DNA of 64,000 nt from a candidate division WOR-3 bacterium (GTDB taxonomy: Bacteria; Hydrothermota; Tepidihabitantia; Tepidihabitantales; Tepidihabitantaceae): assembly GCA_965648905.1 (NCBI GenBank), contig CBFGIT010000012.1, forward strand, positions 31,209 to 95,208. Direction: 5' to 3'. The position numbers and the translations under genes are program-made. Every line of letters begins with the position of its first letter. The stretch's first letter is position 1. The notes beneath the pieces were generated by a model. The model was not told where the DNA came from and did no database searches. It was given only the letters and a program-made list of their open reading frames with translations. Positions 39,765 through 52,961 of the stretch are shown one piece after another.

Positions 39765-42215
39765 ATGACCGGGGCTGGACTGCTGGCAGGTCTGTGTCTG
39801 TTGTGTCTGACATGGGCCGCAGGGCCATATTCAAACTCTAATCAGATTGATATCAACAAGGCGACGCTGGAAGAGGTCCGGGCTTTGCCGGTCGATTCCG
39901 GTCTGGCTCAGCGGATATTCGACCATGTCCAGGAGTACGGTCGGCTGACAAGTATCTACGAACTACTGAGGATTGAGGGGATGACCGCCGAGCGGCTGGC
40001 CGTGCTGAAGCCGCTGGTATATGTGTCGCAGTTGGACTGGCAGGAGCGGGTTCGGCTCAACATCCAGCGAATTCAGCGCCGACTTGCTTCTGAGGAGGGA
40101 CCGACCGCGGCTGCAGTCGAGGAATGGCAGGACCTGTTAGTGACGCCAATCAACGTCAACAAGGCAACGATTGATGACCTTCTGGTACTTGACAACGTTT
40201 CGCTGGTCGACGCGGTGGCGGTTGCGAAGTTCCGGCAGGCAGGCAGCAAGCTCTCGGGCCGGCGCGACCTTGCCAACCAGGTGCCCGGGCTGTCGTCGTA
40301 CGGGTATCGGAACTTAAGGAACTTCGTTGCCTACGAGGACGTCAAAGGAATGGCGTTCGGAGGCAACGTCCGGACCGCATACGAGGCTGAGCCGAGCTGG
40401 TTTGTACAGAATTCGGTTGCCGAGTATGACCAGGCGATAGCTACCTTGGCCGACACGTCGGTCCCTTGGGGCGACACAACGCGCTATTCGGCCCGGGATA
40501 CCGCGTTCTTCCGTGAGCAGCTTGCTGCCAACCGGGCGTTTCTGGCCCAAATGGGCAACCGGGCGAGCGTTCGACACCGGGTCCGCGTGCGGACCGGCGA
40601 CCGCGTCCGGGCTGGAGTCTGGGCGGTGCAGAAGCTCTATGACCGCCGCGCGTTCGATGCGGTCAAGGGCTTTGTCAGCGTCCAGAACTTGCCGTTGGTA
40701 CGACGTCTCATGGTCGGTGACTACCGGCTGACAATCGGCCAGAGCCTGCTGCTTGACAATACGGCCGAGCTTCGGGCGCGAGTACACGAGCGGCCCCAAG
40801 GGTTGTTCAACGACCTGAGCGAGAATGCCGGGTTCGGCTTTCGCGGTGTGGCGACCGAATTGGTTGCGGGTCGACTGGGAGCAGTCGGCTTCTTCTCATC
40901 TGCTCATCGAGACGCGATTCTGAACCCGGACAGCACAGTCAACTACCTTATTGTCTCAACCCCACGTCTGCCGGCGTTCCGCAACAACCTGACCGAGACG
41001 AGCGGCGGGGCAGGCCTGAGACTTGATCTTTCAAACCTGGGGCCGGTGCCGACCGGAACCAGGCTGTCGTTAGGCGGGTTTGATGCGGCCTATGACCGGA
41101 GCTTCCGGCCTGATGCCCGGTATCTTGAGCTGCCCGGTGACGCCGATACGCTCGACGACCCAAACTACACCCGGCTTGATACGGGCCGCACCCGACGGTA
41201 CCTCGGTGCGGACTTCCGTACCGTTGTGGAGAACGTATCACTTGAGGCAGAGTATGCGACCCGACCAGGACGCGATTCACTTGGTCGGCATCGAGTTCTG
41301 CCCGGCAGCGACGCACCTGCCGCATACCTGGTCAAGACCCGGGTCCAGTACGACTATCTGTATGTTACTGCTCTCTATCGCCACTACGACGTGGGTTACG
41401 ACAATCCGTTCAACCGTGGTTTCTGCGAGCAGCTCCGGTTCGAAGACACGCCGCTGGAGAAGTCGTACCGCGTGATTGACCCGGCCTATGTTGCGCTGCA
41501 GGAGTTTCCGAGTCCGAAGGCTGAACAAGGGTTCTTTGTTGATACCCGCTATCAGATTGGCCGGCAGGTTACGTTCACCAGGGTCTATCTTGACGTCTGG
41601 CGTAACCTCGCGTGGGGAGCGGACAACTGGCGACTGCAGGGCGAGGTCGAGTATCAGCCGGTGTATCCGCTGCGCCTGCGGTTCAAGCAGAAGCTGCAGT
41701 CCAAGGAGTTGCCCAAAATCGTACAGTCCACGCGCTCGTTCACGATGGAGTCAAGCATCAGAACAATGGCCAGCCTGTCCAACTGGGACTACCTGACCCT
41801 GGAGTTGCGACACGGGCAGGTGCTCTTGACTCCGACCATGAGGTACGCAGACCAGACCAGCATGGCCGGCGACTTCGTCGCGGTGCAATGGGAGCACAAC
41901 TTCTCAGACAACTTCAACGCCGAGCTGGGCGTGGCTGGTTGGTACACACGCGGCATGTCCCAGTGGATATTTGAGGATAACGGCATCGACTTTCTCGACG
42001 GTCAGGGCATGAAGTGGTACCTGGCTCTGACCGACAGGTTGTCTGATAACCTGCTGGCTTATCTAAAGTTACGGCAGAAAGTGAGTGATTACTTCCACAC
42101 CGGTCTGGCCGGCGGGGAAGGTCTGCATTTCCGGGGAGTGAACGAGCCGGTGCGTGATTTCGTTACGCGGGGCAATTTGCTGAACATCGCCTTGCAGGTT
42201 GACCTTCTGTGGTAA
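39765..42215 (+). CDS. Outer-membrane protein with two ComEA-like helix-hairpin-helix domains and a C-terminal beta-barrel
   Basis: IDINKATLEEVRALP...IYELLRIEGM and INVNKATIDDLLVL; GDYRLTIGQSL; terminal LQVDLLW. Confidence 0.8.
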   Translation: MTGAGLLAGLCLLCLTWAAGPYSNSNQIDINKATLEEVRALPVDSGLAQRIFDHVQEYGRLTSIYELLRIEGMTAERLAVLKPLVYVSQLDWQERVRLNIQRIQRRLASEEGPTAAAVEEWQDLLVTPINVNKATIDDLLVLDNVSLVDAVAVAKFRQAGSKLSGRRDLANQVPGLSSYGYRNLRNFVAYEDVKGMAFGGNVRTAYEAEPSWFVQNSVAEYDQAIATLADTSVPWGDTTRYSARDTAFFREQLAANRAFLAQMGNRASVRHRVRVRTGDRVRAGVWAVQKLYDRRAFDAVKGFVSVQNLPLVRRLMVGDYRLTIGQSLLLDNTAELRARVHERPQGLFNDLSENAGFGFRGVATELVAGRLGAVGFFSSAHRDAILNPDSTVNYLIVSTPRLPAFRNNLTETSGGAGLRLDLSNLGPVPTGTRLSLGGFDAAYDRSFRPDARYLELPGDADTLDDPNYTRLDTGRTRRYLGADFRTVVENVSLEAEYATRPGRDSLGRHRVLPGSDAPAAYLVKTRVQYDYLYVTALYRHYDVGYDNPFNRGFCEQLRFEDTPLEKSYRVIDPAYVALQEFPSPKAEQGFFVDTRYQIGRQVTFTRVYLDVWRNLAWGADNWRLQGEVEYQPVYPLRLRFKQKLQSKELPKIVQSTRSFTMESSIRTMASLSNWDYLTLELRHGQVLLTPTMRYADQTSMAGDFVAVQWEHNFSDNFNAELGVAGWYTRGMSQWIFEDNGIDFLDGQGMKWYLALTDRLSDNLLAYLKLRQKVSDYFHTGLAGGEGLHFRGVNEPVRDFVTRGNLLNIALQVDLLW

Positions 42216-42226
42216 GAGGAGGACGA

Positions 42227-43444
42227 GTGAAAGCAGAATGCAGAGTGCAGACGGCAGAATGCAGAATGCGGAGTGCAGAATGGAAGAAGATGGGGGCTGT
42301 GCTGCTGCTCGTGGCCGCGGCGGTCGGAGAGATACCGGTAAGCGACTGGAGGGGCGAGGAGGTGACCTGGTACGACGCGCGTGCGCTGGCCCGGTGTGGC
42401 GCAGCCGGGATTGATATCGGGCCAGCCGCGGTCTTCTCTAATCCGGCCGGGCTTGCGTTCCTGCGTCGGCCGGTCGTACAGGTAAGCTACGGGATGAGGC
42501 TTGCTGCGGAGCAGCGCACGAGGGTCGTCTACGACCAGTTTGAGAACAGCCTGGGCGAGCTGGCGTACGCGGACAACGTCTACTCCAATGGCATTCCCGG
42601 GCCCATGGCTGCGGCGTACCCGCGCGGCATATTCTCTGCGGGAGCCGCGCTCGGGGCGATGCGCGACTTCAACTACACCTACCTGAGGGCGTACCGCGAT
42701 GATTTCTACGTCAAGGTGGGTGAGGACCGGGTAAGTCAGACCGGCATGTTGTACATGGTCGGGTTGGGTGCGGCGGTCCGGCCACTTGACTGGCTTGCAA
42801 CCGGATTGCGCGGCGCGTACATGTTCGGCAGCCGCAGACTCGAGTCGTGGCACGCGATGGGCGCGGATACGGCATACCTGGCAGACGAAGGCAGGCCGAC
42901 CGGCGTCCTGCTCGGTGCTGGGCTGGTCACTAATCTTCTGTCCCGGCTGCTGGTAGGCGTCGACCTTCAGAGCGGGTACCGATTGAAGAACTGGCGCGAC
43001 TCGGCCGGGACCCTGACTCTTGTTCCTTCTGTTTGTGAAGGCCGTTATCCCTGGAGCGCAAGGCTGGGGGTCTCGTACCGCGTGGCCGGACCACTGCCGG
43101 GCACGGTCTCTGCCGAAGCACGCTACAGTACATGGCATGACCTGGACTCGAACCTGAGCAACGTACTCGCGGCGCGGGCCGGGGTCGAGCACCGGATGTT
43201 GACCAAGGTGCGATTGCGTTACGGTTTCGGCGTCGAACCGATGCCCGACGACCCGGCGATTCAGGTGGCGAGCTTCGGGCTGGGCACCGGCATCGACGCC
43301 GGGCAGTTCCGTATCGACCTGGGCCTACGTTTAAGCCGCAGGGTGTTTGGTCCGACCGGATTCTGGCCTGAGTTGAGCGAAACCGATGTCCGAGTCTACG
43401 AGAGCAGGAACCACTTTGCCTTCACTTTGTCGCGTGAGTTCTAG
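42227..43444 (+). CDS. FadL-like outer-membrane beta-barrel
   Basis: DARALA..G...AVFSNPAGL, amphipathic strands, terminal F. SD GAGGAGG before GTG 42227. Confidence 0.7.
   Translation: MKAECRVQTAECRMRSAEWKKMGAVLLLVAAAVGEIPVSDWRGEEVTWYDARALARCGAAGIDIGPAAVFSNPAGLAFLRRPVVQVSYGMRLAAEQRTRVVYDQFENSLGELAYADNVYSNGIPGPMAAAYPRGIFSAGAALGAMRDFNYTYLRAYRDDFYVKVGEDRVSQTGMLYMVGLGAAVRPLDWLATGLRGAYMFGSRRLESWHAMGADTAYLADEGRPTGVLLGAGLVTNLLSRLLVGVDLQSGYRLKNWRDSAGTLTLVPSVCEGRYPWSARLGVSYRVAGPLPGTVSAEARYSTWHDLDSNLSNVLAARAGVEHRMLTKVRLRYGFGVEPMPDDPAIQVASFGLGTGIDAGQFRIDLGLRLSRRVFGPTGFWPELSETDVRVYESRNHFAFTLSREF
42233..42281 (+). repeat. GCAGAAT heptamer tandem array (7 units) in the 5' end of the barrel gene
   Basis: gcagaat gcagagt gcagacg gcagaat gcagaat gcggagt gcagaat. 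Confidence 0.85.
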
Positions 43445-44957
43445 AGTCGGCGCGGCTCTGCTTGGCTTGTGGCTTGCAGTCGTGCCGGCGCGTGCCGGGA
43501 TTCAGCATCTGTACATCGTGCACACCAACGACATTCATGGCGCACTGCTTCCGGCCGAGGCGTACTGGCTGAACCGCGACTTCCCGCCGCCGCTGGCCAA
43601 TGCTCCGGGCGTGCTCAATGTTATCCAGGAGCTCCGGCGCGAGGCAGAGTCCAAGGGGTATGGATTCCTGTTGCTCGATGGGGGAGACGTGTTCAAGGGA
43701 ACACCGCTCGGCGACTTTACGCGCGGTCAGGTCACGGTTGACTTCTTCCGGCGGGCGGGCTACGACGCGGTTGCAGCCGGCAATCACGATTTCGACTTTG
43801 GCTGGCAGGTGCTCAAGGCTATGGCTGACAGCTCAGGTCTGCCCTGGCTTGCGACAAACGTCCGCGTTGCCGGGGCCGATACCGCGCCCGCTTTTCTGAG
43901 GACGAGCATCATGTTCGAGCGCGGCGGCATCAAGGTCGGCGTGGTGGGACTCATCACCAGGTACCTGCGGGGCATGGTCACTGACAGCCAGATTGGCAAC
44001 CTTGATATTCTGCCTTACCATGACTGTGTGACCGAAGAGGCAGCCCGTCTCCGCGCGCAGGGCGCAGATGTCATCGTTGCCCTGAACCACATCGGGCACA
44101 GCCACGACATCCGTTTGGCAGATTCAGTGTCCGGCATTGATGCAATCATCGGCGCACACAGCCACACCGGCGTCAAACCGCCCTACGAAAGCCCGCACAA
44201 CCACACTATCATTCAGCAGGCTTACAGCAAGCTGAGTACGGTCGGGCTTCTCGACCTTGCCTATGACACCGAAGCGCGGACTGTGGTCGGGTACCGCGGC
44301 AGGTTGATTGACCTGATGGGTGAAGAGGTGCCGATGGACCAGGAGTACCTTGCCTGGCTTGATTCGACCCGGGCCGTGGCCGAGCGCGGCTTTGACGAGG
44401 TCTTGGGCCGAAGCGTGCGCGAGCTGACCCGGGGTGGATTCATGGAGACCCCGGCCGGCAATTTGATTACCGATGCGATGAGAGAGTACGCCCGGGCCGA
44501 CATCGCGCTCCACAACTCGGCCGGCATCCGCGCCAACATTCCCGAGGGTGAGGTCACGTTCCGGCATGTCTACGCGGTTGACATATTCGGCAACACACTG
44601 GTGACCGGAACCTACACTGGCCAGCAGGTGCGCGAGATGCTGGAGGTATCGGTGAATGGTCATCACGCGATATTCCAAGTCTCGGGTTTGAAGATGACGT
44701 ACACGAAGAAGAAGCCGATCGGCCAGCGCGTCCTCTCGGTAACAGTGAATAGTGAGCCGCTCCGACCAGAGCAGCGGTACCGAGTGGCGACCAATTCCTT
44801 CCTCGCGGCCGGCGGAGGTGAGTACGGCGTGTTTCTCGACGGCGAAGAGATCGAAGACAGCTACATGCCGTTGCGCGACCTGATTGCTCAATACATTCGT
44901 CAACACTCGCCGGTTGACGCCCGGGTTGAAGGCAGAATCGTGCTCGTTGACCACTAG
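43434..44957 (+). CDS. Periplasmic 5'-nucleotidase / UDP-sugar hydrolase (UshA family)
   Basis: Signal peptide, HTNDIHG, DGGDVFKGT, GNHDFD, GAHSH, C-terminal NSAGIR..FGN..ATNSFLAAGG. Confidence 0.92.
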   Translation: MSSRVGAALLGLWLAVVPARAGIQHLYIVHTNDIHGALLPAEAYWLNRDFPPPLANAPGVLNVIQELRREAESKGYGFLLLDGGDVFKGTPLGDFTRGQVTVDFFRRAGYDAVAAGNHDFDFGWQVLKAMADSSGLPWLATNVRVAGADTAPAFLRTSIMFERGGIKVGVVGLITRYLRGMVTDSQIGNLDILPYHDCVTEEAARLRAQGADVIVALNHIGHSHDIRLADSVSGIDAIIGAHSHTGVKPPYESPHNHTIIQQAYSKLSTVGLLDLAYDTEARTVVGYRGRLIDLMGEEVPMDQEYLAWLDSTRAVAERGFDEVLGRSVRELTRGGFMETPAGNLITDAMREYARADIALHNSAGIRANIPEGEVTFRHVYAVDIFGNTLVTGTYTGQQVREMLEVSVNGHHAIFQVSGLKMTYTKKKPIGQRVLSVTVNSEPLRPEQRYRVATNSFLAAGGGEYGVFLDGEEIEDSYMPLRDLIAQYIRQHSPVDARVEGRIVLVDH

Positions 44958-44976
44958 GCCGGACGGGCATCGAAAG

Positions 44977-46599
44977 ATGTGGCCCAGGCGCGAGGTTGAC
45001 GAAGCCGCAGTTGCGGTGCTGGCCGAGCAGGCCCATGTTACGCCGGTCATGGCGCGACTGCTCTGGCTGCGTGGAGTCCGAAGCGGCCCTGAGGTCGAGC
45101 GCTGGCTGCATCCCTCGGTTGAGCACTTCCATCCGCCTGAGCTGTTGCCGGATTTTGACCGAGCGGTTGCCCGCATCGAACAGGCGGTCGCCCGACAGGA
45201 GGAGATTCTGCTCTGGGGGCACGACGACCTGGACGGCATCACCTCGATTGTCATCCTGTATCGGCTGCTCACCGACCTGCGAGCACGGGTTGGTTACCAT
45301 GTTCCGGCGCGCGGCCGCGAGAAGCACGGCCTGACCGCGGCAGTTGTGCTAGCTCGGAAGAGTGCTGGGATTCGGCTGGTTGTGACCGTGGACTGCGGCA
45401 TCACCAACCGTGACCAGATTGAGGTGCTCCACCACCAGGGAATCGACGTCGTGGTTACCGACCATCACGAAGTGCCGGACCCGATGCCCGGGGCAGTGGC
45501 AAACGTGGACGCAAAACGGCGGGACTCGGTCTATCCGTATCGTGGTCTGGCCAGTGCCGGCGTGGCTCTGAAGCTGGGCATGGGGCTGGTGCGCAGGCGG
45601 TTGGGCTTGACGTTTGCTGAGTTCCTTTCGGTTCAGCCGGAGCTGTTGGCTCTGGCAGTGCTCGGCACGATCGCCGACCGGGTGCCGTTGACCGGCGAGA
45701 ATCGAACTCTTGTCAGGGTAGGGTTGAAACGGCTTGAGAACACGCGGCTGCCCGCGGTTCGGGCCGTGCTTGACCGGTTGACGCGGCGGGAGCCGCTCTC
45801 GGTCAGCCGGTTTCTGGCCGACCTGCTGCCGCTCTTTGCGGCCGCGGTCGGAAACGACGCAGTCGCCAAGTTCATCAGTGCGACCCGGGAAGAGGCTGAA
45901 GCCTGGGTTGACGGGCTGGAGGCGGAGAGCCGGGCCTGGCGTGCCGAGGCCGAGCGGACGCTGGAGCAGGCAGCGCGTCAGGTGATCCTCGGTGACGGCA
46001 TTCTCTTTGTTCGCAGTCGGGAGCTGTCCTTGCGGGCGCTCGGGTTTTGCGCGGCCAAGCTGAAAGACCGGTATCAGGTGCCCGCGGTGGTCATGGGTTG
46101 GCGCGGTGATGCCTGGGTCGGCGAGTGCCGAGGCATTGAGGGCGTCAGCCTGCTCGACCTGCTAAACGCGTTGGCCGGGTGCTTCATTGACTTCGGCGGA
46201 CACAAGAAGGCTGCCGGGTTCTCGATTGCTGATGACCGGACTGATGAGTTCATCCGCATGGCTGAGGAGTATGCTCATCGCAACTTCGCCGGCAGGATTC
46301 AGCCTGAGAACAGGGTGATGGTTGATGCGGTGCTGCCATTCGCCGAGTTTGACCCCGGGCTGGCTGCGCTCGGGCCGTTCGGCGACGGTAATCCCCAGCC
46401 GGTGTTTGAGTCCGGTCCGGTGAGACTGGTCGCCGACGGTGACGCCCTGCGACCAGCGGTCCGGCGCGATTTGGCTCTGAAGGCGGTGCGCGGTGCGCTC
46501 GCGGTTGAGCCGGAGAGTGACTGGAACCTGCTCTACACCGTGGATGAGACCGGCGGGCTGACTGCGCTTGATGCCCGTTCTGTGTCGGTCAATCAGTAG
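44977..46599 (+). CDS. recJ: RecJ-like DHH single-stranded DNA exonuclease
   Basis: DDLDG, TVDCG, TDHH, ASAGVA, GTIAD, GGHKKAAG, PFG.GNP.P. Alternative start at TTG 44947. Confidence 0.8.
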   Translation: MWPRREVDEAAVAVLAEQAHVTPVMARLLWLRGVRSGPEVERWLHPSVEHFHPPELLPDFDRAVARIEQAVARQEEILLWGHDDLDGITSIVILYRLLTDLRARVGYHVPARGREKHGLTAAVVLARKSAGIRLVVTVDCGITNRDQIEVLHHQGIDVVVTDHHEVPDPMPGAVANVDAKRRDSVYPYRGLASAGVALKLGMGLVRRRLGLTFAEFLSVQPELLALAVLGTIADRVPLTGENRTLVRVGLKRLENTRLPAVRAVLDRLTRREPLSVSRFLADLLPLFAAAVGNDAVAKFISATREEAEAWVDGLEAESRAWRAEAERTLEQAARQVILGDGILFVRSRELSLRALGFCAAKLKDRYQVPAVVMGWRGDAWVGECRGIEGVSLLDLLNALAGCFIDFGGHKKAAGFSIADDRTDEFIRMAEEYAHRNFAGRIQPENRVMVDAVLPFAEFDPGLAALGPFGDGNPQPVFESGPVRLVADGDALRPAVRRDLALKAVRGALAVEPESDWNLLYTVDETGGLTALDARSVSVNQ

Positions 46600-46606
46600 T
46601 CGACAC

Positions 46607-47773
46607 GTGCCGGAGAAGCGCATTCACATCTCGCGCAAACGCAGCCGGGCCCAGCACGCCTGGGTTTTCTCGAATGAAGTCCAACGTACTGAGGGTAACC
46701 CTGGGCCCGGTGATCTGGTGCTGATCATGGAACGGAACCGGCTGGTCGGCTCGGCGGTCTACAATCCGCATTCGTTGATTCGTGCCCGGTTGTACTCGGA
46801 CCGAGACGAAGAGATGGACAAGGCGTTCATCGTACGCCGTATCAGGACCGCATGGGAGTATCGGCAGGAGCGGCTGCCGGGTGAGCGCGACTGCCGGCTG
46901 GTTTATGGTGAGAGCGACCACATGCCCGGTCTGGTCATTGACAAGTACGGTGACCACTTCGTGGTGCAGACATACTGCCTTGCCTTGGACTTGAGGCTTG
47001 AACTCGTGGTTGAGGCGCTGAGAGAGCTGTTCGACACCGCCTGCGTGTTCGAGAAGAATGACTTCCGGCTGCGCGAGCCGGAGAGTCTGCCGCGACGTGA
47101 AGGAGTGCTCTACGGTGTGCCGCGAGCTGACGTTGTCATATCCGAATCGGGCGTGCGGTTCCGGGTGGACATTGCAGCCGGGCAGAAGACCGGGTACTAC
47201 TTTGACCACCGGCTGACCCGGCGCAAGGTCAGAGAGATGGCACGCGACAAGTCGGTATTCGACGTGTTCTGCTACACCGGTTCATTCGCGATTAACGCAG
47301 CTCTCGGTGGTGCGACACGCGTGGTGGCGCTCGACGCTTCGCTCGCGGCTTGTCAGATGGCCCGGGTCAATGCCGGGCTCAACGGCGTCGAAGACCGATG
47401 TGAGTTCGTTGTCGCCGATGCGTTCCGGGCGCTCGTGCAGATGGTTCGGAGTGGAACCCGGTTCGACCTGGTCTGCCTTGATCCGCCCGCCTTCATCAAG
47501 CGTCGGCACGAGAAGGATGCCGGTCTGCGTGGCTACCGCACGGTCAACGCGCTGGGCATGAAGCTGCTGACCGAGGGCGGGACGCTGGTTACGTCGTCCT
47601 GCTCGCATTACCTGTTCTGGCAGGACATGCTCGACATGCTGGTCGGCGCGGCTCAGGATGCAGGGCGGAGCTTCACGATTCTCGACCGTTCTACCCAGGG
47701 GCCGGACCATCCGGTGCTGCTTTCCATGCCGGAGTCAGAGTACCTGCGCTGTTTCGCACTCAAGGTGCACTAG
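46607..47773 (+). CDS. rlmI: RlmI-family 23S rRNA m5C methyltransferase
   Basis: PUA domain (AWVFSNEV), ESDHMPGLVIDKY, GQKTGYY.D, DVFCYTGSF, LDPPAF, TSSCS, DHP..PESEYL. Confidence 0.9.
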   Translation: MPEKRIHISRKRSRAQHAWVFSNEVQRTEGNPGPGDLVLIMERNRLVGSAVYNPHSLIRARLYSDRDEEMDKAFIVRRIRTAWEYRQERLPGERDCRLVYGESDHMPGLVIDKYGDHFVVQTYCLALDLRLELVVEALRELFDTACVFEKNDFRLREPESLPRREGVLYGVPRADVVISESGVRFRVDIAAGQKTGYYFDHRLTRRKVREMARDKSVFDVFCYTGSFAINAALGGATRVVALDASLAACQMARVNAGLNGVEDRCEFVVADAFRALVQMVRSGTRFDLVCLDPPAFIKRRHEKDAGLRGYRTVNALGMKLLTEGGTLVTSSCSHYLFWQDMLDMLVGAAQDAGRSFTILDRSTQGPDHPVLLSMPESEYLRCFALKVH

Positions 47774-49149: not shown

Positions 49150-49178
49150 TTGACGCAGAATGTCGGCTGGGGTATAAT
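49150..49178 (+). promoter_or_regulatory. Near-consensus sigma70 promoter (leaderless) for the zinc-ribbon gene
   Basis: TTGACG-N17-TATAAT-N7-GTG. Confidence 0.7.
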
Positions 49179-49185
49179 TATCCCA

Positions 49186-49467
49186 GTGCCGGTAAGGGAA
49201 GGAAGCGCGACAGACTGCCCGCATTGCGGCTTGGAGCTGCGCAGGGAAGGCTGCTACTGCACGAACTGCGGTGCCCGCCTTGCTCAGCGGGTCGCCGCGG
49301 ACGGGCCGAACCTGCCCCGCTACCAGCGGCGGGCTCGCCGCGTGGTTACTCCGGCCCGCTGCAGTGCTTTTCACCACGAACTGCTCGTTACAGTCTTCAA
49401 GGCGACATTCTGTCCGGAGTGCGGCCGTCGGCTGATTGTCGGGCTGCTCAGGCCCGAAGTCAGCTAG
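49186..49467 (+). CDS. Small double zinc-ribbon protein
   Basis: CPHC, CTNC, CSAFHH and CPEC in 93 aa; has its own promoter. Confidence 0.65.
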   Translation: MPVREGSATDCPHCGLELRREGCYCTNCGARLAQRVAADGPNLPRYQRRARRVVTPARCSAFHHELLVTVFKATFCPECGRRLIVGLLRPEVS

Positions 49468-49496: not shown

Positions 49497-50243
49497 CTAG
49501 CGGATGACCGGGAGCCAGTCGTGCAGCAGGAAGTAGAACCGGCCAATGAGCAGAGAGATGCGGGCCATGATCGTGTAGCCGAACGACGCGCCGAAAGCAA
49601 CCATGATGAAGACAATACCGACCCGCGAGACCAGTCCTAGCGCACCCTTGTGTTCGCGCGAGAAGTAGAAGTAGAAAAGAGTCGTGATGACTCCGACGAA
49701 GATAACGATGTTATTGGCATTCACCAAGGGACGGAGCGTGTCCGAGACCTGGGGCAGCAGGTAGCCCTGGACAGCGGCAACGAGCGCAAGGCCAGAGCCA
49801 ATTCCGACCGTGAACGAGATCGGCCAGCGTGATAACCACTCGATGCGCGGGTTGATCAGCGTTGGCACGAACACGACCAGGCACATGACGGCAAGTACCA
49901 CCAGTATCCAACTGAAATGGTGGAACACGAGCATCAGCACGCTCAACGCGGCCAGGGCGGGCAGAGTCAGGTTCGAACGCGTGAGCATGATGACTCCGAG
50001 CAGGGCGGGCAGGAGCAGAATCCAGGCTTCGACGCGGCTACCGGAGGCGATGTGGCTGTCGAAACGCTCGACCAGCATGGGGTAGACGTCGAATGACCAG
50101 GCGTAGATGACTGTGAACCCGGCCGAGATGCCGACATAGATGTGCTCGGCCGCCTTGTAGAGCGGATTGTCACGATAGAGGAACGAGAGAATCGCAATCG
50201 TCAGGGTCGCGGCAACCCAGGTGCCGATGAGGTTGAGAATCAT
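49497..50243 (-). CDS. Polytopic membrane protein of the DUF6754 cluster
   Basis: About 6-7 TMs; SFLYRDNPLYKAAEHIYVG, MVAFGASFGYTIMARISLL. Confidence 0.8.
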   Translation of the reverse strand: MILNLIGTWVAATLTIAILSFLYRDNPLYKAAEHIYVGISAGFTVIYAWSFDVYPMLVERFDSHIASGSRVEAWILLLPALLGVIMLTRSNLTLPALAALSVLMLVFHHFSWILVVLAVMCLVVFVPTLINPRIEWLSRWPISFTVGIGSGLALVAAVQGYLLPQVSDTLRPLVNANNIVIFVGVITTLFYFYFSREHKGALGLVSRVGIVFIMVAFGASFGYTIMARISLLIGRFYFLLHDWLPVIR

Positions 50244-51064
50244 GGCTTGCTCTTGCGGCGGGACAGGATGAAGCCCAGATTGCCGAGCAGAAGCAGGAAG
50301 ATAATCAGCGCATGGGCCCAGGACTGGGCCGGCATTCCGAGCGAGGCCGAACCACGCTGCTCGACCAGTTGCTCGTAGGCGGCCGCGGCCTGGAGTCCGC
50401 CAATCAGGCCCTTGATTTGTCCGGAAAGGAGATACTGATACAGATTTGGGGCGTTGACGCCGGTGCAGCCGACGATAATCGGTACGTTGAACCGGCCGCC
50501 GGCATACTGAATCCAGACGTCGGCGACCGCGCCATGGGCCAGCGAGACCAGAAGTCCGATGTCGCGGTAGTTGTGGACACGGTGCATGAACTCGAACGAG
50601 TCGACCGGCACGCCCCGGTAGTCGACATTGAAGTAGTCGCGGATCTCGCGGCCGATGCCGACCATCATCGCGGTGTAGCCGGGCCGGTACCCGAGGTTGA
50701 CGTAGTCCTGACCGTAGACCTTGCCCATCGCGGGCGCGACCTGATTGAGCGCGATGCCGCCCAGGGGCAGGCCGAGCGGCAGTTGTCCCATGAGCATTAC
50801 CTTCAGGTCCTTCTGGAACGAGTGGCGGAGCAGGGCGAGCAGCATCGGATTGACCTCGGGCGCAGATGATGGGTCGAAGTCAATCGAAATCATCACGACC
50901 GAGCCCGCCGGAAGCCGGTCAACCGCATCGTAGGCCCCGCGCACGGCGTCAGAGACCGGCACGGTCGTACGCGGCCGGATGATGAGCGGCAGAGCGACCG
51001 ACAGGGCAAGCAGGGTGTACAGAATCCGGCGGTCAACGCTGGCCAGGCGGTTCCAGATGTTCAT
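50240..51064 (-). CDS. Membrane-anchored alpha/beta protein of the DUF6754 cluster
   Basis: N- and C-terminal TMs; YGQDYVNLGYRPG, YLLSGQIKGLIGGL..AA.YE, QSWAH. Confidence 0.8.
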   Translation of the reverse strand: MNIWNRLASVDRRILYTLLALSVALPLIIRPRTTVPVSDAVRGAYDAVDRLPAGSVVMISIDFDPSSAPEVNPMLLALLRHSFQKDLKVMLMGQLPLGLPLGGIALNQVAPAMGKVYGQDYVNLGYRPGYTAMMVGIGREIRDYFNVDYRGVPVDSFEFMHRVHNYRDIGLLVSLAHGAVADVWIQYAGGRFNVPIIVGCTGVNAPNLYQYLLSGQIKGLIGGLQAAAAYEQLVEQRGSASLGMPAQSWAHALIIFLLLLGNLGFILSRRKSKP

Positions 51065-51066
51065 GG

Positions 51067-51768
51067 CTAGGACATGTAAGTGCGTTCGATGCCGAGGATG
51101 ATGCGCAGCGACATCGCCATGCCGCCCAAGGCCAGGCCGATGCCGATACCACGACCGGCCGCGGCCTGGGGGGTAGCCATGAGCCAGTCTTTGATTCGGG
51201 CAAACGGCTCAAGGCCAGCAAGATGACTCAGGTCCAGAGAGGGGAGGACCAGTTGGATTAGTCGGACAATGCCGTGCCAGATGTCGGTGCCCAGAGGTAC
51301 GTTGCCGAGCATGACGAAGCAGGCGGCAAGGAGCAGCAGGGTGGCAGCGAAGTTGCGGACGCGGAACGCACGGTAAGCTGCCGAGACGATGAAGAACGCA
51401 AGACTGGCAAACATCGTTGACTGGAGCGGGATTATCATGTAGGTGTAGAGCCACATGAACGGCGCCTGCAGCGCAAACGGGCTCTGGAACCGAAACCAGG
51501 AATAGAGGCCGAGCACAACCGTCGAGGTCAGCGAGAGCAGAAGCAGCAGGCTGTAGGGCCAGCCCGGACTGCGTCGAAAGACCCGGACCAGGTGATGACG
51601 GGTGAGCGAGTCGAGCCCTAAGAGCATCGTGAACCCGGCGACGATTGTGTACCAGTTGAGGAAGCGCGATTCCAGGTCGCCGAACGGCCGGTGCGGGATG
51701 AAGAACGCAACGATGAGCAGGACTGAGGTAAGGAAGACGATGACCAGCGGAACTGTGCGCTTGAGCAT
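51067..51768 (-). CDS. Polytopic membrane protein of the DUF6754 cluster
   Basis: About 6 TMs; PLQSTMFASLAFFIVSAAYRAFR, GIGIG..LG..LRIILGIER. Confidence 0.8.
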   Translation of the reverse strand: MLKRTVPLVIVFLTSVLLIVAFFIPHRPFGDLESRFLNWYTIVAGFTMLLGLDSLTRHHLVRVFRRSPGWPYSLLLLLSLTSTVVLGLYSWFRFQSPFALQAPFMWLYTYMIIPLQSTMFASLAFFIVSAAYRAFRVRNFAATLLLLAACFVMLGNVPLGTDIWHGIVRLIQLVLPSLDLSHLAGLEPFARIKDWLMATPQAAAGRGIGIGLALGGMAMSLRIILGIERTYMS

Positions 51769-51771
51769 CGG

Positions 51772-52908
51772 CTAGTAGGTGGGCGTGGCCCAGCGCACAA
51801 CGGTCTCGAACGCCGCAACCAGGGCTGGAGCACGGGCGACCGTTGCTGCAGTGCCGAAGAGCACGAGCGCAGTCGTCAGCAGTATCAGCCAGAAACGGAT
51901 GAAATCTTCGCCTTTGATTGTGCCGAGCATCACCGGCTCGGGCCGCAGGTAGCAGGAGGCGGCGAAGATCTCTTCGCCGATCATCGTGTAGTCGCAGGCC
52001 GCGACAAAGAAGGGCAACTGAGTTGTCTCGGTCGTACCGGCGAGTTGAATCGCGCCGACCGAGTGGCCGGTCTCAGCCATAATCAGCGACTCAGCATAGA
52101 AGTAGCCCAGCCAGAAGATCGCGCCGGGCCGTTCGCGCAGAATGATGCCGTCAACGCCCGCGGCATAGCCGAACTGGTCTGAGGTGAGGAAGTTGACGTT
52201 GTCGGCGTTGTAGAGGTCAGGTCGGCCGGCTTCAGTGTAGGCCTCCTTGACCGTTTCCTGTGCCGCGGTCATGACGATCGGGTCGGAATTGGGCACAAGC
52301 AGCCGGGATGAGTACTCGGCAGTGCGGCGGGCGATCCGACGCAGCAGGGGCAGGGCAGCGATGACGACCATGTCGGTGATATAGCCGAGTCCGAAGCTGA
52401 ACAGTATCGGCTTGCCCATCTCGGTCGCGCGGCCGAGCGCGTCGTCGATCGCGTCGAGCCCGGCAATCTTGCGGATGAACATCTTCTCACCCCGGCGGGC
52501 CCGGGCAATATAGACGAAGAATATGAGACAGATGGCAACGATGGCAACGAGGATGTTGGTGCGGGCGGTGTTGAACCACTGGGCCCGAGACCGAACCGGG
52601 CCAAAGACCAGGCTGCGGGCCGAATCGGCGCCGACATATCCGACAATCAGATAGTAGTAGTTGATACCATCGCGCAGCCCGGAATCCTGATACTCGGTTG
52701 AGCTGGCCGGCTCGGTTGCCACGACAGTGAAGCCCGAGTCGGCGTTGACTGAGCGGTACAGGCGGATGCTGTCAAGGAGCGGAGGTTGGTCTTCGGTCCA
52801 GCGCCAGGACACGAGGAGTTGTCCGCCTTCGTCATTCGGAACGTCGGCGACCGTGACGTTCGGGGGCGGAACCGGCGCAACGAGAAGGAGCAGGAGGGCG
52901 AAGGTCAT
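51772..52908 (-). CDS. FN3-domain + DUF6754 membrane protein
   Basis: Signal-like start, FN3 domain (DVPND.G, Y.D..L..G..YYY), TM, IRKIAGLDAIDDALGRATEMGKP, AESLIMAETG, QLPFFVAACDY..IGEE. Start inferred at ATG 52908. Confidence 0.82.
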   Translation of the reverse strand: MTFALLLLLVAPVPPPNVTVADVPNDEGGQLLVSWRWTEDQPPLLDSIRLYRSVNADSGFTVVATEPASSTEYQDSGLRDGINYYYLIVGYVGADSARSLVFGPVRSRAQWFNTARTNILVAIVAICLIFFVYIARARRGEKMFIRKIAGLDAIDDALGRATEMGKPILFSFGLGYITDMVVIAALPLLRRIARRTAEYSSRLLVPNSDPIVMTAAQETVKEAYTEAGRPDLYNADNVNFLTSDQFGYAAGVDGIILRERPGAIFWLGYFYAESLIMAETGHSVGAIQLAGTTETTQLPFFVAACDYTMIGEEIFAASCYLRPEPVMLGTIKGEDFIRFWLILLTTALVLFGTAATVARAPALVAAFETVVRWATPTY

Positions 52909-52933
52909 AGTCGTCAGCAGGCTTGAAACAAAC

Positions 52934-52961
52934 AGCTTAGCGGGCCTGACGGGCAAGTCAA
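52934..52961 (-). promoter_or_regulatory. sigma70-like promoter for the DUF6754 operon
   Basis: TTGACT-N16-TAAGCT. Confidence 0.5.

Follow-up and report, generated by a model that had tools for sequence, protein, structure and literature searches.

Four adjacent genes of a candidate division WOR-3 bacterium, here called A, B, C and D, form a conserved unit, and we propose that they encode the membrane part of a larger system, so far undescribed, whose shared ATPase powers membrane transport modules that can be interchanged, a proposal that we regard as evenly balanced between right and wrong. The module is widespread, no earlier study of it was found in the literature, and it may represent a new type of ATP-driven transporter. 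Annotation hides the system under the names 'hypothetical protein' and 'fibronectin type III' and under a MutL-family match. A literature search covering mostly open journals found no paper on the family of A, DUF6754, or on its link to B, C, D or the further subunits N, s and t described below. It likewise found none on PF13941, on WOR-3 peptide transporters or on glutamate mutase in Nitrospira proteomes, and among the titles listed for GlmL, ASKHA transporters and Kuenenia complexomes none was relevant.

The four-gene locus and its neighbourhood

Within the window, i.e. the whole 64,000-nt stretch of DNA analysed, the four open reading frames follow one another in the order A-B-C-D with spacings of 3, 2 and -4 nt, as the original prediction had stated (Table 1). 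That prediction also gave the cassette a promoter of its own, and a plausible candidate site is indeed found, with its first base exactly at 52961 and overlapping the stop codon of larA. A generic promoter scan scored this site below threshold, and no Shine-Dalgarno site is evident; the genome contains 679 sites of the motif class, against 44-59 in 5 shuffles (about 14-fold enrichment), 228 of the 679 sites lie at most 150 nt upstream of a long ORF (background 4%), and the motif is also present at one of the two orthologous loci checked (L064).

Table 1. Features of the four-gene locus, in window coordinates
Feature	Position	Strand	Description	Remark
Subunit A	51772..52908	-	378 aa from the ATG giving P0002; signal peptide, FN3-like outer domain, TM1, predicted cytoplasmic Rossmann-like DUF6754 domain, TM2	PF20539 match
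Subunit B	51067..51768	-	233 aa, ~6 TM, N-terminus predicted inside	directly after A in conserved order
Subunit C	50240..51064	-	274 aa; Rossmann-like domain, predicted to lie outside the membrane, between TM1 and TM2	
Subunit D	49497..50243	-	248 aa; 6-TM core of the family and a local hydrophobic insert; N-terminus predicted to lie outside	
Candidate promoter	52934..52961	-	sigma70-type, TTGACT-16 nt-TAAGCT	enriched motif class

In other genomes, the order ABCD is kept at 79 of the 83 A sites with enough downstream DNA, and a coupling analysis was dropped at 107 paired cassettes (effective number 87). Two A copies stand alone, and A lies far from D in at least five genomes of the phylum of genome G162; among the 201 genomes of this phylum, D is found in 55 of the 56 A-positive ones and in none of the remaining 145. 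The host genome carries three full ABCD copies, the two outside the window lying in unrelated gene contexts, and a fixed three-cassette stoichiometry was rejected, since the number of copies varies between 1 and 6. Neither plasmids nor phages gave a match for A, and the four proteins match no characterised complex in the searches that were run (PDB profiles, Foldseek and structural neighbours).

It had also been suggested that the module could provide the inner-membrane step for the nucleotide-scavenging operon nearby or for the substrate of LarA, and the adjacency in the window and the presence of larA in 29 of 31 related genomes speak for this. However, larA adjoins the cassette at 1/20 (same genus) and the nucleotidase operon at 3/20 orthologous loci, the host's other two copies lie elsewhere, larA has a promoter-like site of its own, and profiling of 77 cross-phylum loci detected larA and the HhH-barrel gene at none and the nucleotidase at one, on the opposite strand; this link is thus close to negligible in our estimate. 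A convergent zinc-ribbon ORF was likewise rejected as a member of the system, with no tblastn match in the cross-genome loci and matches in 5/20 close-relative loci. Across lineages, the neighbouring genes suggest no consistent cargo, and ABC ATPases are not among the widely recurrent neighbours, with scattered cases only.

Predicted architecture of the membrane module

By sequence, A is a clear member of DUF6754 (PF20539; E 3e-106, 354.7 bits versus a gathering cut-off of 27, model positions 2-244 of 257), a family with no assigned function. The FN3 domain originally ascribed to it is echoed in the name of an 86%-identical relative ('fibronectin type III domain-containing protein'), but Pfam gave no match and the pairwise support is weak. 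The outer domain is only 26-32% identical among the three paralogues compared with 55-72% for the core, and relatives of A range from 282 to 1276 aa, with outer parts of FN3 or PQQ-propeller type. A carries invariant acidic, Arg and Gln residues, and C has conserved Arg pairs at both termini.

The AlphaFold models of A (AF2, C-terminal 282 aa, pLDDT 93.8) and C (pLDDT 95.9) both present a Rossmann-like domain between two membrane helices, wherein 15 elements correspond one to one and in order, and they have top structural neighbours in common in matching register, e.g. 1kjn. The two short segments whose likeness had been noted at first both fall on strand beta3 of these models. A permutation test of A/C strand matching ranked the observed arrangement 8 of 720, HHalign gave a probability of at most 3% for A against C, and an alternative HHalign alignment was colinear over 221 columns (E 0.17), which leaves A/C sequence homology marginal. 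The predicted internal duplication is supported as far as the shared fold and element order of A and C are concerned, but profile comparison fails to establish homology for them, as it does for B against D (probability <1%, with no signal above reversed controls). Charge bias, the single line of evidence on orientation, places the Rossmann-like domain of A inside and that of C outside, so that the pseudo-symmetry looks inverted.

As for the proposed membrane-spanning partners of about six helices, the description holds for B and for the family core of D, but the D of the window probably has eight helices because of an extra hydrophobic insert at about residues 91-130, which most relatives lack. 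The module has at least 12 conserved membrane helices, which are rich in small and charged residues; threefold hairpin repeats can be seen in B and D by eye, of which only D1/D2 scored above controls (probability 23%).

Neither Pfam nor NCBIfam contains a family that B, C or D matches, and Pfam has no model for N, s or t; PDB sequence searches returned nothing for the profiles of A, B, D and the companion ATPase M and only matches of E > 0.1 for C and N; for an EcfT or S-component fold in B or D, neither Pfam nor the PDB sequence searches gave a match, and for a pore-loop subunit Pfam gave none; and PHROGs gave nothing for 7 of 8 proteins. Foldseek found no match at E <= 0.001 for the A model and low-TM generic ones only for the C model (eIF2B, shikimate dehydrogenase; TMq ~0.3), while in the ESM Atlas C matched unnamed clusters only and a D relative had no named match that could be used. 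In agreement with the early remark that redox motifs are missing, A-D contain no Walker A, GxGxxG, CxxC or CxxCH motif and no TrkA_N Pfam match, and none of B, C and D has a Cys conserved above 50%.

The companion ATPase M and its partners

The original prediction held that no ATPase was present, which is correct for A-D themselves, but other parts of the genome encode an actin-fold ATPase, M, and further subunits, all of which track the cassette: a small protein, s, lies with M on contig C5, and N together with t, a small membrane protein that is often present, on contig C11. M is a GlmL-like ASKHA protein of ~600 aa (PF13941, E 5e-123) that is 59-84% identical across most lineages sampled, and its ASKHA motifs, the phosphate-1, phosphate-2 and adenosine motifs of the actin fold, are invariant across 72 M sequences. 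N, of ~375 aa, is made up of barrel-sandwich hybrids together with parts that are probably of the swivelling and KOW types, with weak matches to KOW-like (E 0.56), RraA-like (E 0.12) and RnfC_N/NQRA_N barrel-sandwich domains. Many loci have a single operon, s-M-N-ABCD or ABCD-s-M-N; M and N are naturally fused at one locus (L158), and in the two genomes with a split operon (L256, L261) A stays beside M-N. One M accompanies several cassettes.

The distribution of M follows that of A. Among 151 WOR-3 genomes, 133 have both, 2 only A, 1 only M and 15 neither, all 15 belonging to one genus; the co-occurrence counts given here and below come from phylogenetically non-independent genomes, and the co-loss in WOR-3 represents one event. 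N, s, D and t were also not found in 3/3 genomes of this genus and were present in 2/2 sister genomes. In the 201 genomes of the G162 phylum, the corresponding numbers are 54, 2, 3 (M over the cut-off only, one full-length) and 142. In a further phylum (that of G165, 264 genomes), M accompanies A in all 40 A genomes, and the five full-length M-only cases there are canonical GlmS-GlmL-GlmE. Only three carrier genomes at least 90% complete lack M (G081, G216 and G219), and this near-absence of M-less carriers suggests an obligatory role of M; its level of identity and the near-universal presence of the system in WOR-3 point to an important function.

M is homologous to the GlmL/MutL and Or-4 accessory ATPases (PF13941; NF040745, NF040744, TIGR01319), with the ATP motifs intact. 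However, it is longer than GlmL/MutL (~470 aa), has N and ABCD rather than a B12 mutase as its partners, and scores below all NCBIfam cut-offs (222.7 vs 475, 207.5 vs 600 and 159.3 vs 204.05), whereas a canonical GlmL control reached 582 vs 475. M is not encoded with glutamate mutase S and E, GlmE has no match in the host genome at E 0.01, and in genome G050 M and the canonical GlmL form coexist.

These relationships raise the possibility of a membrane enzyme or group translocation system, wherein the paired Rossmann-like domains would bind a substrate or cofactor and M would phosphorylate the substrate or free a tightly bound cofactor, in analogy with GlmL-type reactivases acting on B12 enzymes. 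The scores of M against GlmL, hydantoinase and BadF-type profiles would fit, as would the many invariant polar residues near strand ends in the cytoplasmic domain of A, the glycine-cleavage genes preceding s-M in 20/120 loci, many of them non-planctomycete (gcv genes and s are also the neighbours of M in the host genome), and a lipoyl ligase after D, which accounts for 6 of the 53 downstream genes that were scanned. Yet A-D have no metal-cluster motif in addition to no GxGxxG or Walker motif, the host has no glutamate mutase E subunit, the structural matches are generic, and we rejected glycine cleavage as an obligatory partner because the pathway is kept in 2/3 genomes that lost the system, so that an enzyme appears distinctly unlikely.

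Proposed transport mechanism and its alternatives

We favour import of a small solute by the system. A+B and C+D would form two pseudo-symmetric halves, inverted relative to each other, that surround a membrane pathway; the C domain, helped by the variable outer domain of A, would receive the cargo outside, and M-N would dock on the cytoplasmic domain of A, with ATP switching the module between states. One ATPase could serve several interchangeable modules, by analogy with group II ECF transporters. The acidic residues that are conserved in A and C suggest that the cargo could be a cation or an amine; amino acids, short peptides, ions and cofactors are candidates too. More tentatively, and with somewhat less than an even chance, the system might be a primary active transporter of a new class, an inverted pseudo-symmetric four-protein module that carries a homologous Rossmann-like domain on either face and is driven by a shared actin-fold ATPase. 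To our knowledge, primary transporters use few energising designs, and against transport we know of no solute transporter powered by an ASKHA, or actin-fold, ATPase.

In group II ECF transporters, EcfAA'T is common to many S components, and the system described here resembles them in having one energising module and several scattered membrane modules. However, A-D have neither an ABC ATPase or Walker A motif nor a Pfam match to ECF parts, the co-occurring ATPase is of the actin fold, and the variable unit comprises four proteins with soluble domains predicted on both sides. RnfA/RnfE and NqrD/NqrE are inverted 6-TM pairs that work with RnfC/NqrA; B and D are likewise two 6-TM proteins of similar size and opposite predicted orientation, and N gives the weak RnfC_N/NQRA_N match, but B and D have no conserved Cys, Fe-S and flavin motifs are missing, and B/D homology went undetected.

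Secondary carriers and channels typically show inverted pseudo-symmetry, and ABCD may itself be a channel or ion-driven carrier that M-N only assembles or gates, in the manner in which RCK/KTN rings gate potassium transporters. RCK/KTN domains, and transhydrogenase domain III as well, place a Rossmann-like domain beside membrane helices and resemble A and C at Z 8-9. However, dozens of unrelated Rossmann folds reach equal scores, no Pfam match supports the resemblance, a second domain copy is predicted outside the membrane here, and M is near-always present in the more complete carrier genomes, which makes a channel decidedly improbable. A transmembrane sensor, wherein the variable outer domain of A would bind a ligand and ABCD would relay this to a cytoplasmic M-N ATPase switch, could account for outer domains that vary while the core stays constant, for many modules per single ATPase and for the KOW-like and RraA-like matches of N. 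No DNA-binding, kinase or cyclase partner recurs across lineages, however, and the number of conserved membrane helices exceeds signalling needs; we consider a sensor improbable.

The system spans anaerobic candidate phyla to anammox bacteria and Nitrospira. In Nitrospira moscoviensis, NITMOv2_3303-3297 are likely the s-M-N-A-B-C-D orthologues in a single seven-gene operon, as matched by order and mass. During growth on nitrite, the M-sized and N-sized proteins had near-equal normalised counts of 3560 and 3592, and the A-sized and C-sized proteins were in the membrane proteome (PMC8407350 Table S1). The system appears to be made even in a cultured nitrite-oxidising bacterium.

Such expression in an autotroph is also consistent with a system that uses ATP to export or translocate a macromolecule or lipid, in envelope biogenesis or protein handling, in which M would act as a ratchet or remodeller by analogy with Hsp70 import motors. 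In Nitrospira-type loci the system follows kdsA-kdsD-pgsA-plsY, tolB follows the window-type copy in 9/20 loci, TolQ/ExbB-like and TonB-receptor-like genes each occur in 6/77 loci (plug domain confirmed for two of the latter), and the known relatives of M, which PMC4682846 describes as enzyme-reactivating chaperones, remodel proteins, a point that also speaks against the solute-transport reading. However, such neighbours are lineage-specific and common housekeeping genes, and a set of several paralogous modules with exchanged outer domains agrees better with recognition of cargo from outside, so that we judge an exporter unlikely and retain import as the favoured direction. Expression in an autotroph on nitrite weakens a peptide-only role, and with a pure culture, public proteomes and a seven-gene operon, N. 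moscoviensis makes the question testable at the bench.

Conservation and surroundings of the cassette

The four cassette genes (A to D, A encoding a DUF6754 protein) had been described as separated by 3, 2 and -4 nt behind a promoter of their own, and this spacing was reproduced from the minus-strand ORF coordinates. A generic promoter scan upstream of A was empty; the candidate promoter listed in the table belongs to a motif class with 679 occurrences in the genome, where five shuffles gave 44-59. Of its matches, 34%, against 4% expected, lie just 5′ of long ORFs, so that an own promoter for A is plausible. Close A relatives carry database names of WOR-3 proteins. A 93-aa double zinc-ribbon ORF, convergent with D, has a near-consensus promoter at 49150, is nested in an over-long tolB ORF call, and has homologues at the same position in 5/20 close-relative loci.

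Features of the cassette, its surroundings and related loci (candidates in N. moscoviensis assigned by gene order, mass and helix count, not sequence; masses in brackets from three loci; PMC8407350)
Feature	Position or locus	Strand	Evidence or description
A	52908-51772	-	ORF; DUF6754, E 3e-106
B	51768-51067	-	ORF; Pfam/NCBIfam: no match
C	51064-50240	-	ORF; Pfam/NCBIfam: no match
D	50243-49497	-	ORF; Pfam/NCBIfam: no match
Candidate promoter TTGACT-16-TAAGCT	begins 52961	-	motif-class enrichment in genome
LarA-family gene	52958-about 54208	-	
HhH-barrel/nucleotidase operon	39765-47773	+	
tolB	47794-about 49150	-	
Zinc-ribbon ORF	49186-49467	+	
M	contig C5		sole PF13941 gene of genome, 603 aa
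M + N-like fusion	L158:8763-11612		950 aa
Extended M	L288:7705-11490		1262 aa
Extended M	L289:8429-10939		837 aa
Candidate s	NITMOv2_3303		12.8 kDa (13.1-13.6), 0 predicted helices
Candidate M	NITMOv2_3302		66.0 kDa (65.8-68.0), 0 predicted helices
Candidate N	NITMOv2_3301		39.5 kDa (39.8-39.9), 0 predicted helices
Candidate A	NITMOv2_3300		44.3 kDa (45.3-46.9), 2 predicted helices
Candidate B	NITMOv2_3299		23.6 kDa (23.5-23.7), 6 predicted helices
Candidate C	NITMOv2_3298		30.2 kDa (29.7-30.2), 1 predicted helix
Candidate D	NITMOv2_3297		27.2 kDa (27.3-27.5), 7 predicted helices
Candidate Memo	NITMOv2_3296		47.2 kDa (46.3-47.1), 0 predicted helices

The genome of the window has ABCD in three full sets that lie in mutually unrelated settings, and DUF6754 is present in 135/151 sampled WOR-3 genomes (1-6 copies each) and in 0/14 control genomes. 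The 77 cross-phylum loci from GTDB genomes, drawn from the best 80 of 595 and hence tilted to close relatives, hold 108 A copies, 25 of them with insufficient downstream DNA; B-C-D directly follows A in 79 of the 83 testable copies, two others being disrupted or duplicated variants and two solitary. The expectation that the four genes recur together elsewhere was thus borne out. Counting against strict linkage, A lies distant from D in five or more genomes from the phylum of G162 (one of two phyla sampled besides WOR-3). Depositor labels among the 77 loci include Zixiibacteriota, Eisenbacteria, Fermentibacteria, Poribacteria, Planctomycetota, Brocadiaceae, Gemmatimonadota and Cloacimonadota, and are imperfect, 'Ignavibacteria' rows being interleaved with Zixibacteria in the tree. 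The window-type copy belongs to a 21-row clade (support 98) with members from across the order, and the genome's other two copies lie outside it. Tandem A-A-B-C-D arrangements, with an extra A before a single B-C-D set, occur in L012, L030, L151 and other WOR-3 loci, and suggest that A subunits are swappable on one core. In some G162-phylum genomes (G300, G327 and G338; L258-L260) subunit B is enlarged to about 613 aa, without a Pfam match.

The proposed links to the LarA substrate and to the nearby nucleotide-scavenging operon did not hold: larA occurs at 0/77 cross-phylum loci and adjoins the cassette in 1/20 window-type loci, the HhH-barrel gene occurs at 0/77 and the nucleotidase at 1/77, and the operon is adjacent in 3/20 window-type loci and intact in 3/20 relative loci. 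Single-copy larA itself is present in 29/31 relatives, mostly away from the cassette. A functional tie to either is therefore extremely improbable. Of the models, LarAH6 malate racemase gives the LarA-family protein its best score, but no NCBIfam cut-off is reached; the operon encodes an HhH-barrel protein, a putative outer-membrane barrel and 5′-nucleotidase, RecJ-like and RlmI-like proteins. Downstream, tolB shares the cassette's strand here and in 9/20 orthologous loci, in some cases no more than about 60 nt from D.

Folds, topology and pseudo-symmetry

AlphaFold2 models of the C-terminal 282 residues of A (pLDDT 93.8) and of C (pLDDT 95.9) have an identical series of elements, namely a membrane helix and a linker helix, then six strand-helix pairs, then another membrane helix, with strand 6 passing straight into its helix in both and a single insert after helix 3 in C. 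Strand 3 carries both of the segments quoted in the original prediction as similar. The models of A (Z 9.5, rmsd 3.3, 132 aligned) and of C (Z 10.4, rmsd 3.0, 137 aligned) align to 1kjn in one shared register, a match that is tied with many Rossmann-like folds and hence identifies no specific structural relative. The shared element order of A and C is consistent with the suggested internal duplication, but HHalign between them reached a probability of at most 3% (an alternative colinear alignment of 221 columns gave E 0.17), the strand-matching test ranked 8 of 720, and profile comparison detected no similarity between B and D; sequence support for an A/C duplication is thin.

Conserved Lys/Arg positions are predicted to place the domain of A in the cytoplasm together with the two termini of C, and thereby the domain of C outside; by the same positions, the N-terminus of B would be inside and that of D outside, and A-B and C-D would be arranged inversely. 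The outer part of A shares 26-32% identity among the genome's three paralogues versus 55-72% for the core. Relatives of A (n=150) range from 282 to 1276 aa; a scan of 67 of the longer ones gave fn3 matches in 2 and PQQ-type propeller matches in 13. That such a complex acts as a sensor is improbable.

A co-occurring ATPase and its partner

M, a GlmL-like actin-fold ATPase, is encoded after gcvT-H-PA-PB and the 105-aa gene s. Since the genomes are related rather than independent, the following counts are tallies, not tests: among the same 151 WOR-3 genomes, 133 have A and M, 2 only A, 1 only M and 15 neither; among 201 of the G162 phylum (G162 labelled Phycisphaerae), the numbers are 54, 2, 3 and 142; and among 264 of the G165 phylum, M is in 40/40 A genomes, five full-length M-only cases each lie between GlmS and GlmE, and 218 genomes, including G529 (marked unpublished and used for this count alone), have neither. 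Neighbour clustering over the 77 loci found M in 19, its partner N in 19, s in 12 and the small membrane protein t in 8; s-M-N-ABCD or ABCD-s-M-N order recurs in many of 120 further loci, and t is present in 47/220 loci, every time with M.

M retains the actin-fold ATP motifs and scores below all GlmL cut-offs, and GlmE has no match in the window's genome. MutL/GlmL is described as a chaperone for glutamate mutase reactivation (PMC4682846); M is related to it but has a different partner. N (contig C11) gives weak barrel-sandwich, RraA-like and KOW-like matches. A channel or carrier independent of ATP is less probable still than a sensor. A natural fusion joins a divergent M to an N-like part in a genome (G113) that also has a standard M, and two M open frames bear apparent long N-terminal extensions without a Pfam match.

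All 15 WOR-3 genomes without A and M belong to one genus, g41 (G039, G070, G123 and 12 more). N, s, D and t are absent in 3/3 g41 genomes searched and present in 2/2 sister genomes, and glycine cleavage is retained in 2/3 g41 genomes examined; g41 and its sister genera, which retain the system, offer a natural comparison set toward the pathway served.

In metagenomic full-operon loci, N relatives bear the name Nitrospira, and the Nitrospira-type order is kdsD-pgsA-plsY-s-M-N-A-B-C-D-Memo. In Nitrospira moscoviensis, NITMOv2_3308-3306 are kdsD, pgsA and plsY, followed by two small genes and by 3303-3296, all 'Uncharacterized' in Table S1 (PMC8407350). Nitrite-grown cells yielded 43 peptides for 3302 and 21 for 3301, with near-equal normalised counts (ranks 638 and 635), 17 for 3300 and 7 for 3298, both in 5/5 membrane digests, one each for 3303 and 3297 and none for 3299; transcripts of 6/7 of the candidate s-M-N-A-B-C-D genes were above the median (PMC8407350). 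This expression, together with anammox-family carriers (L121 and L136), argues against a role limited to peptide uptake in fermenters.

A possible mechanism and its novelty

We propose that ABCD could form a membrane pathway of inverted pseudo-symmetry, with a binding domain on either face, and that M-N would dock on the highly conserved cytoplasmic domain of A and cycle ABCD with ATP, a joint reading to which we give an even chance. Docking on A is suggested by its position beside M-N in two split operons, and by the way B12-enzyme reactivases hold on to partner subunits with a Rossmann-like fold. By gene counts, a single M accompanies several cassettes. That the system is an exporter or translocase is unlikely, and that it is a membrane enzyme or performs group translocation slightly more so.

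A belongs to the DUF6754 family and M is homologous to the GlmL/MutL family, whose defining features M does not show. The system as a whole matches no known class tested, and no published description was found in the literature searched, whose coverage excludes most subscription journals.

As to cargo, flanking genes are mixed in kind (90/150 candidates scanned): gcvP-family genes occur in 20/120 loci, and a lipoyl ligase follows D in 6/53 downstream genes scanned. The ligase gene lies immediately 3′ of D in L073, L074, L084, L150, L151 and L152, and with gcv genes 5′ of s-M in L074, L084, L150 and L151, the system is there sandwiched between gcv and ligase.
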